Positions 41,100-43,218 are shown, counted from the stretch's first letter. The stretch is DNA of 64,000 nucleotides from Bacilli bacterium (GCA_017936845.1 JAGBES010000018.1:92-64091), one strand, 5' to 3'. Program-made: numbers and translations. Notes: generated from the letters alone by a model not told the origin.

Positions 41100-41648
41100 T
41101 TAAACAGTTTCACTTAATGTTATTTCTCCATCAGATACTGGTAGATTTTCATAATAAGCATCTGTAATACTTATTTCTCTTGCTGCTGCCATGTTATTTG
41201 CAATCTCTATAGTTAATGTATCACTACTTAATGATGTGTTTTGTAATGTATCATCAAATATGTGTTCTCCATCTGATGATGTTTGTTTATAGTATATTAG
41301 TGGTGCATTTTCTTCAGCATATGGAACATTATTAAATACAGCATTTCCATCTATATCTGAAGTTATAGCTTCTCCATAAGTAGTACCTTCAGCATCACAT
41401 CTATAAAATGTAGCTCCTTCTATTGGTATACCAATATCTGTTCCATCATCTGTTACATGTAATGTAAGTGTACCTGTAGCTGATACCACAAAACTATAAC
41501 TATCTACTCCTTCTGTAATTTCAACAGTGTCTGGTGTAATAGTTGAATTATCATATCCAGTTATATTAGCCACAACACTATAATTACCATCAGATAATTC
41601 TTTACTTCCTTTACCATTTGTAATAGGAATTATATGCTCTTTTGCCAT
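41100..41648 (-). CDS. Highly acidic Thr/Asp/Gly-rich protein with probable prealbumin/Cna-B-like beta-sandwich segments and no signal peptide
   Basis: ORF track. GATFYRCDAEGTTYGEAITSDIDGNAVFNNVPY resembles Cna-B/carboxypeptidase-regulatory-like folds. Its composition is very different from neighbouring proteins. Confidence 0.55.
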   Translation of the reverse strand: MAKEHIIPITNGKGSKELSDGNYSVVANITGYDNSTITPDTVEITEGVDSYSFVVSATGTLTLHVTDDGTDIGIPIEGATFYRCDAEGTTYGEAITSDIDGNAVFNNVPYAEENAPLIYYKQTSSDGEHIFDDTLQNTSLSSDTLTIEIANNMAAAREISITDAYYENLPVSDGEITLSETV

Positions 41649-41986
41649 AAAATTATTTCCCCTTTCTCTATTTTTAAACCTTTATAATTCTTATCAGTTA
41701 AAAATAAATTAATATATGGTCTTTTTATTATATTTTTCTCTAATTGAAATGATATTTTACAAGAACATAACGGATGAATTAAAATTTTCCTTTTTAAAAT
41801 ATTACAGTTTCTACTATTATTAGCTTTAATAATTATTTTATATAATTTGTAATTACATAATTTTATATTTATTTTATCTTTAGTTCTATTTTTATATATT
41901 AAGTTATTATTCATATCATAAATAACAATAGTATAATCACATTTATCAATACTATCTAAAAAAGTACAACATATACTTACATCCAT
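41630..41986 (-). CDS. Cys-containing hypothetical protein (118 aa) overlapping the downstream acidic protein gene
   Basis: ORF track. 19-nt overlap with 41100..41648. Eight Cys residues. Confidence 0.4.
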   Translation of the reverse strand: MDVSICCTFLDSIDKCDYTIVIYDMNNNLIYKNRTKDKINIKLCNYKLYKIIIKANNSRNCNILKRKILIHPLCSCKISFQLEKNIIKRPYINLFLTDKNYKGLKIEKGEIILWQKSI

Positions 41987-42151
41987 TTTATCACCTCAAT
42001 AATTCTAAATTATTATATGAAATTTATTTTTTTATGAATATGTAAATAAACTAAATATCTTTCTACAATATATATAAAAAAATTCAAGATTAAACTTTTT
42101 ATCTTGAACTTTAAAATTTGTTAAATTGTTAGAAAAAACTCATCTGTTCGC

Positions 42152-42180
42152 TTGTTTTTATATTATACTAATAGTATAAT
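42152..42180 (+). promoter_or_regulatory. Sigma-A-type promoter of the small hydrophobic peptide gene
   Basis: TTGTTT (42152..42157), a 17-nt spacer, then TATAAT (42175..42180). The predicted transcription start falls at the beginning of the left inverted-repeat arm. Confidence 0.45.
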
Positions 42181-42188
42181 TAAATAGA

Positions 42189-42413
42189 GGGAATACTAAC
42201 TGTTGAGTACTTGCCAACTTCTACAGGAAGGAGGCTTGATAATATGAAGAAAAAAGATTTATTAATCTCATTTCTAATATTAATTATCATTTTATTAATA
42301 GTCTCTTTAATGATTCTATGCGTAAAAAAATAGTACTCAATCTAGCAAAAGATTAAGTACTTAAACAATTAACTTTGGGTAAGTACTCAACGTGTGAAAG
42401 TTAAGTATTTCCC
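42189..42413. repeat. Imperfect inverted repeat enclosing the small peptide gene, plus internal AGTACT-containing repeats
   Basis: Left arm GGGAATACTAACTGTTGAGTACTTGCC (42189..42215). Right arm GGGTAAGTACTCAACGTGTGAAAGTTAAGTATTTCCC (42377..42413). The arms are mutually complementary with one internal bulge, and a T-run follows. Confidence 0.6.
42244..42333 (+). CDS. 29-aa hydrophobic membrane peptide (candidate type I toxin-like or regulatory peptide), not in the ORF track
   Basis: AGGAAGGAGG Shine-Dalgarno sequence about 9 nt upstream of the ATG. Product is MKKKDLLISFLILIIILLIVSLMILCVKK. Confidence 0.45.
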   Translation: MKKKDLLISFLILIIILLIVSLMILCVKK

Positions 42414-42513
42414 TTTTTTATTTTATGCAAGTTTATTTCCTTACATACTAATAATAACATAATAAAGAAATTTTGACAAGTTCTTTATACAAATATATTT
42501 AAAATTAAAAGAA

Positions 42514-43218
42514 CTATCCCCAAGGAATATCTTTAGGTTTAGTTCTTTTTTCATTTTTTATTTCTTCTACTATTTTTCCACTATTCATTTTTATTATTCT
42601 ATCACCTATTAAAGCAATACCTGGATTATGTGTAACGATAATCATTGTAGTTTTTAATTTATTATTTGCTTCTACTAGGGACTCTAATACTATTTTACCT
42701 GTTTTTTCATCTAAAGCTCCTGTTGGTTCATCACAGAACATTACAGATGGTTTTTTAGCAAGAGCTCTTGCGATTGATACTCTTTGTTGTTCTCCACCAG
42801 ATAATTCATGCATATATTTTTTCTTATGTTTAGAAAGACCAACTGTTTTTATTATTTCGTCTATATCTACTCTAGCTTTTCCTAAGGACGATCCTACTAA
42901 AACATTTTCATATACATTTAAGTGTTCTAGTAAATTATATGTTTGAAAAATAAATCCTAAATTTTTCTTTCTAAATCTTGTCATTTTCATATCACTATAT
43001 TTTGAAATATTCTTACCCTTATAGCATATTTTTCCTTTTGTTATTTTATCAAGTCCTGATACAACATTTAAAAGAGTCGTTTTTCCACTTCCACTAGGTC
43101 CTAATATTACAAGTATTTCTCCTTCTTTAATAGAAAGATTAATATTATTTAAAACAGTTGTTTTAATTTTACCAGTTTTATATACTTTATATACATTTTT
43201 TATTTCTATCAAATTCAT
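42514..43218 (-). CDS. ABC transporter ATP-binding protein (MacB/LolD-like)
   Basis: Walker A GPSGSGKTT, signature LSGGEQQR, and Walker B MFCDEPTGALD. Confidence 0.93.
   Translation of the reverse strand: MNLIEIKNVYKVYKTGKIKTTVLNNINLSIKEGEILVILGPSGSGKTTLLNVVSGLDKITKGKICYKGKNISKYSDMKMTRFRKKNLGFIFQTYNLLEHLNVYENVLVGSSLGKARVDIDEIIKTVGLSKHKKKYMHELSGGEQQRVSIARALAKKPSVMFCDEPTGALDEKTGKIVLESLVEANNKLKTTMIIVTHNPGIALIGDRIIKMNSGKIVEEIKNEKRTKPKDIPWG

Follow-up and report, generated by a model that had tools for sequence, protein, structure and literature searches.

An intergenic gap of the window, by which we mean the whole 64,000-nucleotide stretch of a Bacilli bacterium genome analysed here (GCA_017936845.1, JAGBES010000018.1:92-64091), contains a real, unannotated gene for a 29-residue membrane peptide, which faces a predicted gene for a small antisense RNA. 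The element is probably one copy of a chromosomal, multi-copy module of the type I toxin-antitoxin-like class. The family is new in sequence and its kind is a known one: judged by architecture, it is a type I toxin-antitoxin-like system with a 3'-overlapping antisense RNA. A type I toxin-like module had been proposed in the initial annotation of this DNA, and the family-wide comparison supports that reading, as the element is multi-copy, the two arms of its transcript co-vary, the ORF is under purifying selection and some of the toxin ORFs have decayed.

Sense gene and peptide

The initial annotation described a promoter, a strong ribosome-binding site and a 29-residue ORF encoding a single helix with Lys-rich ends, and all elements named there are found within a few bases. 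The features of the sense strand of the window copy are listed below; positions are counted from the first nucleotide of the window.

42152..42180, plus strand: sense promoter, TTGTTT (42152-42157), a 17-nt spacer and TATAAT (42175-42180), from reading of the sequence
42189..42419, plus strand: predicted 231-nt mRNA of the toxin-like peptide, beginning at GGG and ending with the T-run, with ends placed by promoter and terminator
42189..42215, plus strand: 5' arm of the long-range helix, GGGAATACTAACTGTTGAGTACTTGCC, paired with 42377-42413 in the MFE and centroid structures
42225..42234, plus strand: Shine-Dalgarno (SD) sequence AGGAAGGAGG, GGAGG core at 42230-42234, with the ATG 9 nt downstream, from reading of the sequence
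42244..42333, plus strand: ORF of 29 codons, MKKKDLLISFLILIIILLIVSLMILCVKK, from ATG at 42244 to TAG at 42331-42333, by translation
42377..42419, plus strand: 3' arm (42377-42413) plus T6 (42414-42419), forming a local terminator hairpin or the long-range helix

The -35 hexamer of the sense promoter is weak, with 3/6 consensus positions, which explains why the promoter is not listed by a consensus scan. The same hexamers recur at this position in other modules: of the 74 full-length modules, 46 have TATAAT and 23 have TTGTTT, and the 74 share a comparable sense unit of 205-249 nt. The GGAGG core is likewise found in most family members. The peptide reads as one hydrophobic helix with Lys-rich ends. 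With a hydrophobic ORF of fewer than 60 residues that has its own promoter and ribosome-binding site, the gene has one of the attributes that mark the type I class.

The peptides of the family fall into a few types of 24-31 aa, in which a basic N-terminus is followed by ~20 hydrophobic residues; the C-terminus is mostly K or KK. Within length classes, the pN/pS of the ORF lies between 0.12 and 0.49, and the changes are concentrated at third codon positions and fewest at second positions. For the 29-aa class of the window peptide, the changes by codon position are 19/6/47 and pN/pS is 0.12. By this pattern of substitution, the module ORFs are under purifying selection and hence coding.

Fold of the sense RNA

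The RNA spanning 42186-42425 folds with an MFE of -67.4 kcal/mol, compared with -39.2 +/- 3.6 kcal/mol for 200 dinucleotide shuffles (z = -7.8), none of which folds as well. The complementarity between the transcript ends that was noticed initially is borne out by this prediction: 42189-42215 pairs with 42377-42413, which T6 follows, in both the MFE and the centroid structure, and the energy of the duplex between the two arms is -34.6 kcal/mol. Extra AGTACT repeats had also been reported between the arms; these are present, but they are the two arms of one hairpin, 42332-42361, rather than separate repeats. This hairpin begins within the stop codon and is referred to as the post-stop hairpin.

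Taken by itself, the 3' arm forms a hairpin immediately before T6, with an energy of -12.9 kcal/mol in the window and a family mean of -9.7 kcal/mol. Since this hairpin forms directly before the T-run, the 3' arm can first serve as an ordinary terminator. The two local hairpins summed (family mean -14.0 kcal/mol) are far weaker than the end-to-end helix. The latter is general in the family; in the MFE structures, 71 of the 74 full-length modules pair at least 11 of their first 14 nt with the last 32 nt before the T-run.

The 5' and 3' arms of the module co-vary across the family. For this comparison, the 5' and 3' ends of 72 distinct modules were joined and aligned with MAFFT, blind to structure, and scored against a 27-pair structure; the pair counts are conservative because slips of the alignment register between subtypes count as non-pairs. 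Of the cells of this alignment, 75% are paired with the observed partners, as against 35-52% with slid partners, and double-sided changes number 198 as against 45-74. The covariation score of 0.334 exceeds that of slid partners (at most 0.144) and of shuffles (0.218), 0/500 of which reached the observed value. An alignment-free duplex test gives the same ranking, with mean energies of -33.0 kcal/mol for cognate 5'/3' arms, -18.8 kcal/mol for dissimilar non-cognate arms and -11.2 kcal/mol for shuffled arms. Many of the helix pairs are G-U, and the mRNA strand is stabler than its reverse complement in 63/74 modules; the structure therefore belongs to the sense RNA.

The 5' arm could also pair with the post-stop hairpin, but here the cognate energy of -16.5 kcal/mol is only modestly better than the non-cognate energy of -12.8 kcal/mol, a difference of about one standard deviation. 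This weak complementarity is a hint of an intermediate fold.

Antisense RNA gene

The initial annotation could not identify an antisense partner by eye. A candidate is now located on the minus strand, convergent with the peptide gene, in which an extended -10 promoter (42479..42451) and a terminator (42361..42324) bound the predicted RNA.

42479..42451, minus strand: antisense promoter, TTGTCA, a 17-nt spacer and TGtTATTAT (extended -10), from a promoter scan, 10/12 matches with TG present
42444..42324, minus strand: predicted antisense RNA, ~121 nt, from promoter and terminator signals
42427..42444, minus strand: antisense 5' stem-loop, beyond the mRNA 3' end, from the RNA fold
42332..42361, both strands: post-stop hairpin, which on the minus strand is the antisense terminator stem, 12 pairs and then ATTTTTTT, from terminator scan and fold

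The hairpin 42361..42332 with ATTTTTTT is the sole terminator-like site that the consensus scan found in the region. The predicted antisense RNA covers the 3'-terminal 96 nt of the mRNA, a stretch to which the final three codons of the ORF and the stop codon belong. It folds into three hairpins with an energy of -32.5 kcal/mol (z = -5.3), namely the 5' stem-loop past the mRNA end, a central hairpin complementary to the mRNA 3' arm and the terminator. The U-run of the terminator (42330..42324) comes from the two C-terminal Lys codons of the peptide (AAAAAA, within 42322-42333), and the C-terminus of the peptide is thereby coupled to antisense termination. Peptide types that do not end in KK have an A-rich stretch right after the stop codon instead.

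In all 74 modules, the opposite strand bears TTGnnn, a 16-18-nt spacer and TGnTAnnnT, at a fixed distance of 28-31 nt from the end of the mRNA. The -10 and TG formed part of the search pattern by which most of the loci were fetched, and the -35 did not; the six copies of this genome and the copies derived from BLAST were chosen independently of that pattern. With the qualification that the -10 and TG are thus partly selected by the search, the predicted antisense gene is the best-conserved part of the module. The segment of its 5' stem-loop, which often has a GAAA loop, is stabler on the antisense than on the mRNA strand in 62/74 modules. The commonest form is CAAG-GAAA-CUUG, and the stem varies by compensation (CAAG/CUUG, AUGAAG/CUUCAU, GUAAG/CUUGC).

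We also note that in many relatives (e.g. L031:528-847 and L014:578-932) the antisense -35 is embedded in a hairpin, either in its stem or in its loop (e.g. AAAACGACTTGTCCAAAAGTCGTTTT), and T-runs follow this hairpin on both strands. By its sequence, this hairpin looks like a bidirectional terminator that insulates the module. The window has a weaker version, TAAAGAA..TTCTTTA, at about 42466-42490, and it is absent in three other copies of this genome (C13a, C13b and C2b).

Accessibility of the ribosome-binding site

The initial annotation held that the fold-back masks translation. This part of the claim is not supported, and masking of the SD sequence by the fold-back was dropped as an explanation: the SD sequence lies outside the end-to-end helix and is predicted to be paired by local or ORF-internal sequences with or without the fold-back. 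The mean P(unpaired) of the GGAGG core is 0.13 in the full-length RNA, 0.12 when the 3' region is treated as if bound by the antisense RNA and 0.14 in the nascent RNA. With the 3' region held, SD accessibility is lower in 17 modules and higher in 13, with no consistent trend in the family; given this inconsistency, a translational effect of the antisense RNA is unsupported family-wide. Individual copies do respond in the prediction. With the 3' region held, P(unpaired) of the SD sequence in the window copy falls from 0.13 to 0.03, and in modules of the C2b type occupation of this region is predicted to extend the SD hairpin from 4 to 10 bp.

Copies in this genome and decay of the ORF

The genome assembly comprises 1.12 Mb in 34 contigs, with 88% completeness and 23.3% G+C. 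The search for further copies that the initial annotation had suggested was carried out with a module profile and found six full copies, that of the window included, and nothing else significant.

Window copy, contig C4: peptide MKKKDLLISFLILIIILLIVSLMILCVKK, intact
Copy C2b: peptide MNKRVYNIKLCRYICIILSLITLLVFVIKK, intact
Copy C13a: peptide MIKRELTQFIIIILLFFIVITLLYR, intact
Copy C13b: peptide MTKRENSQFIIIILLFILVFVIIFK, intact
Copy C2a: MTK*EISQFIV..., in-frame TGA at codon 4
Copy C29: MNKKDILIFS*VITIL..., in-frame TAA at codon 11

Folded singly, the six mRNAs share one architecture, which consists of a terminal helix between the 5' end and the segment before the T-run, a post-stop hairpin and a paired ribosome-binding site. 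The modules are situated in intergenic gaps among ordinary chromosomal genes, e.g. between efp and an SDR gene or between an EamA-type transporter gene and gltX. RNase III is encoded in the genome. Two pairs of copies lie ~1.1-1.2 kb apart with one gene between them, C2a/C2b at an EamA-like gene and C13a/C13b at a sirtuin-like gene.

Loss of the peptide is frequent. An intact ORF is missing in 10/74 full-length modules through nonsense, frameshift or loss of the start codon. In this genome, 2/6 copies (C2a and C29) have in-frame stops. In at least 8 further copies, two of them at the efp-SDR site, the toxin promoter and the 5' part of the ORF are gone and the antisense half is kept. No copy that lacks only the antisense half was seen away from locus or contig ends; as the loci were retrieved with a motif on the antisense side, this asymmetry and the apparent surplus of remnants without the toxin half are biased. 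The recurrent losses of the toxin ORF would be indirect evidence that the peptide is toxic. At the efp-SDR site, this genome has a full-length nonsense copy (C29:61083-61433, equivalent to L003:1471-1817), and two congeneric species retain no more than the 3' (antisense) half (L033:1451-1646 and L035:1461-1645); by sequence comparison, the site looks like one locus at successive stages of decay. Peptides that are C-terminally extended or frameshifted, 37-38 aa long and reading into the post-stop hairpin, occur at L011:1508-1846, L071:2729-3075 and L057:3450-3784, and these versions may be further decay states or sequencing errors.

Distribution in other genomes

By BLAST, 16 of 24 further genomes of the family carry the module. 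Elsewhere BLAST gave only short hits, which were dismissed as chance because the module model finds nothing there. A strict IUPAC motif that spans the mRNA T-run and the antisense -10 was used for wider searches; both BLAST and the motif undercount. Among 185,579 species representatives, the motif is present on at least 120 contigs, almost all of them from gut MAGs labelled as uncultured Bacilli, Tenericutes or Firmicutes bacterium, Mycoplasma sp. CAG:611 or Candidatus Ventrenecus, with hosts that include rabbit, human, mouse, ruminants and chicken. All 80 of the 80 loci fetched carry modules, 97 in total. In evenly drawn samples, the motif was found in 121/401 genomes of the order, 120/399 of the family and 63/146 genera, and the reversed pattern, used as a control, gave zero matches. 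It was found in 0/137 genomes from 25 other families of the class, and a search of phage and plasmid collections for the module returned no match. Tandem arrays occur in relatives, one of five modules (genome G383, contig C11:6244-7970) and one of four (genome G315, contig C3:43836-45022), with a spacing of ~350-520 nt.

The window peptide is absent from a collection of 15 billion proteins, in which one 30-aa relative is listed as 'hypothetical protein' on 921 contigs. Peptides near-identical to that of the window are found in four other genomes, and near-identical peptides in other genera occupy unrelated gene contexts. Three genomes of the same genus have the orthologue of the ABC ATPase gene that neighbours the window copy and lack the adjoining module. 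Together with the unrelated contexts of near-identical peptides, this absence indicates that copies are gained and lost. The homology with genomes of the same genus ends at window position 42487 and the other flank is not syntenic, so that no clean insertion boundary can be defined. At window 41100-41986, on the minus strand and directly downstream of the antisense terminator, the gene of a strongly acidic 182-aa protein overlaps by 19 nt a 118-aa ORF containing Cys. This gene pair has no counterpart beside the ABC transporter genes of the three same-genus genomes, which places the module at a synteny break among other variable genes.

Alternative explanations

It is unlikely, in our judgement, that the gene encodes a small membrane protein without toxicity, such as a modulator of a transporter or of the envelope, which would be controlled by a cis-antisense RNA and by mRNA structure with no poison-antidote behaviour. 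What the sequence shows is an architecture, the modules lie among ordinary chromosomal genes rather than in prophages or plasmids, and the weak, sub-threshold resemblances of the peptides are solely to transmembrane segments of small membrane proteins. Multiplicity in one genome, with up to five copies in tandem in one relative and diverged peptide types, speaks against this account, as do the near-identical peptides at different locations between genera and the repeated inactivation of ORFs with the antisense half kept; such traits are typical of toxin-antitoxin modules and would be odd for a housekeeping membrane subunit. We give quite a low probability to a real peptide gene that has no RNA antitoxin, in which the conserved downstream block would serve either for termination on both strands or for protein binding, and mRNA folding alone would provide the control. 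The hairpin that surrounds the -35 in many relatives does resemble a terminator on both strands, and for most of the copies collected the search pattern had itself specified the -10 and TG. The -35, on the other hand, was outside the pattern and yet occurs at a spacing of 16-18 nt in every one of the 74 modules, and neither the six copies of this genome nor the BLAST-derived copies were pattern-selected. A dedicated minus-strand terminator ~120 nt downstream, a 5' stem-loop that favours the antisense strand in most modules and remnants that retain the antisense half after losing the toxin half also argue for an antisense gene.

The initial annotation raised the prospect that the arms are the ends of a MITE present in many non-coding copies. 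An element that is multi-copy, ~350 bp long, intergenic and bounded by inverted-repeat arms would fit a non-coding repeat of this or another palindromic kind with a fortuitous ORF, but the arms vary from copy to copy with compensatory changes, in contrast to near-identical terminal repeats, and the copies carry the ORF. Further, the SD sequence and the ORF sit at the same place in every copy, with the low pN/pS given above, and the G-U pairs make the structure strand-specific. We therefore regard a non-coding repeat as highly improbable.

Proposed mechanism

For the type I toxin-antitoxin-like reading, we infer both transcripts, their interaction, the cleavage by RNase III and the toxicity, and propose the following course of events. 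The plus strand would give the mRNA of ~231 nt for the 29-residue, single-helix membrane peptide. During transcription, the 3' arm would fold locally as the terminator hairpin, and in the finished RNA it would swap its partner to form the long helix with the 5' end, closing the molecule in a manner comparable with helix P1 of bsrG. This end helix probably shields both ends from exonucleases, which would yield a stable, poorly translated mRNA with its ribosome-binding site paired elsewhere. From the minus strand, a strong extended -10 promoter would give the antisense RNA of ~121 nt. Since it matches the 3'-terminal 96 nt of the mRNA (final codons, post-stop hairpin and 3' arm) with perfect complementarity, the antisense RNA would displace the 5' arm of the mRNA and form a long duplex, and the resulting 96-bp sense/antisense duplex would be a substrate for cleavage by RNase III. 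In some copies only, the freed 5' arm could lengthen the hairpin at the ribosome-binding site and thereby exert a translational effect. If the antisense RNA were lost, the peptide would be made and membrane damage would be expected. This order, in which end protection, displacement and RNase III come before an effect on translation that is confined to some copies, is favoured because SD accessibility has no family-wide trend.

A more far-reaching proposal, which we consider possible but doubtful, is that the module acts as a partner-swapping RNA device made of three related quasi-palindromic hairpins (5', post-stop and terminator), and that the genome holds six mutually orthogonal pairs of this design. 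The terminator hairpin would end transcription and would then exchange strands with the 5' hairpin, locking the mRNA. The central hairpin of the antisense RNA is a perfected copy of the mRNA 5' arm and would thus act as a mimic that out-competes that arm. If this were true, the diverged arms of co-resident copies would constitute six mutually orthogonal toxin/antitoxin pairs in a 1.1-Mb genome.

Comparison with known systems

The module family is invisible to Rfam, Pfam and NCBIfam. Rfam gave no match at E <= 10 over 41500-43000, and among Pfam and NCBIfam models searched with seven peptides at E <= 10 there was no type I toxin family and no family that reached threshold. No relative was found in the PDB. 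No published link of type I systems to this lineage was found in a literature whose coverage is incomplete.

The type I toxin-antitoxin-like reading can be placed beside several known systems. An analogy to the hok and fst families was drawn initially; the closure of the 5' and 3' ends is indeed shared with hok, but the closest architecture is that of bsrG/SR4 rather than that of hok or fst. We regard bsrG/SR4 of Bacillus subtilis, of the BsrE-G-H group, as the closest known system, the resemblance being one of architecture only. In the bsrG mRNA, nt 1-35 pair with nt 232-262 to form the long helix P1 around the ORF, and the SD sequence is part of a short helix, which binding of the antitoxin SR4 extends from 4 to 8 bp (PMC3834814). 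Like bsrG/SR4, the module has a small hydrophobic peptide and a compact, highly structured mRNA with a long helix around the ORF, in which its 5' ~30 nt are paired with a 3' segment. Its SD sequence is predicted to lie in a short helix, a predicted convergent antisense RNA covers the 3' end and the end of the ORF, and complementary hairpin loops are available for first contact. The predicted growth of the SD hairpin of the C2b type from 4 to 10 bp resembles that of bsrG from 4 to 8 bp (PMC3834814). In contrast to bsrG/SR4, there is no sequence similarity in the peptide and the RNAs, the mRNA has 231 rather than 296 nt and the antisense RNA ~121 rather than 183 nt. The 3' strand of the module's helix is the terminator hairpin itself, whereas bsrG has a separate terminator, SL4. 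The module is also chromosomal and multi-copy in small-genome uncultured gut Bacilli rather than prophage-borne.

To our knowledge, an end-to-end helix formed from two copies of a similar quasi-palindromic hairpin has not been described for txpA/RatA, bsrE/SR5, yonT/SR6 or SprG/SprF. The module shares with these systems an antisense RNA on the 3' side that partly overlaps the mRNA and the end of the ORF (PMC8594479), as is the case for Gram-positive type I systems with 3'-overlapping antisense RNAs (PMC8594479). As for these systems, RNase III-dependent decay would be expected, and the RNase III gene is present here. There is no homology with them, and the module peptides are shorter, with 24-31 aa.

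In hok/Sok and aapA/IsoA, as in the module, the full-length mRNA is closed by a long-range 5'-3' helix that has covariation support (PMC6733600). In these Gram-negative systems, the 3' end carries an anti-SD sequence and trimming of the 3' end activates translation (PMC6733600), whereas the helix of the module excludes the SD sequence. Their antisense RNAs target the 5' part of the toxin mRNA (PMC8594479), in contrast to the predicted antisense RNA of the module, which would act at the 3' end. Again there is no sequence homology.

The fst/RNAII system (par of pAD1) is similar to the module in that a small mRNA for a hydrophobic peptide and an antisense RNA converge in a Gram-positive setting. 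The fst mRNA is protected by a 5' structure. No match to the Fst family was found for the module peptides in Pfam and NCBIfam. In par, one bidirectional terminator serves both RNAs, which pair also by means of 5' direct repeats, and RNAII has no overlap with the ORF (PMC8594479). In contrast, the predicted antisense RNA of the module would end at a separate terminator within the mRNA and reach into the final codons.

Type I systems are reportedly known from a small number of phyla, in part because they are sought by similarity to known loci (PMC12390103). The present family occurs in about a third, and probably more, of the species sampled from a large lineage of uncultured gut Bacilli with small genomes. 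Some of these genomes have multiple copies, and such reduced genomes retain several of the modules. The compact, naturally diversified mRNA/antisense pairs with co-varying arms would suit tests of the action of 3'-overlapping antitoxins and the construction of orthogonal RNA regulators.
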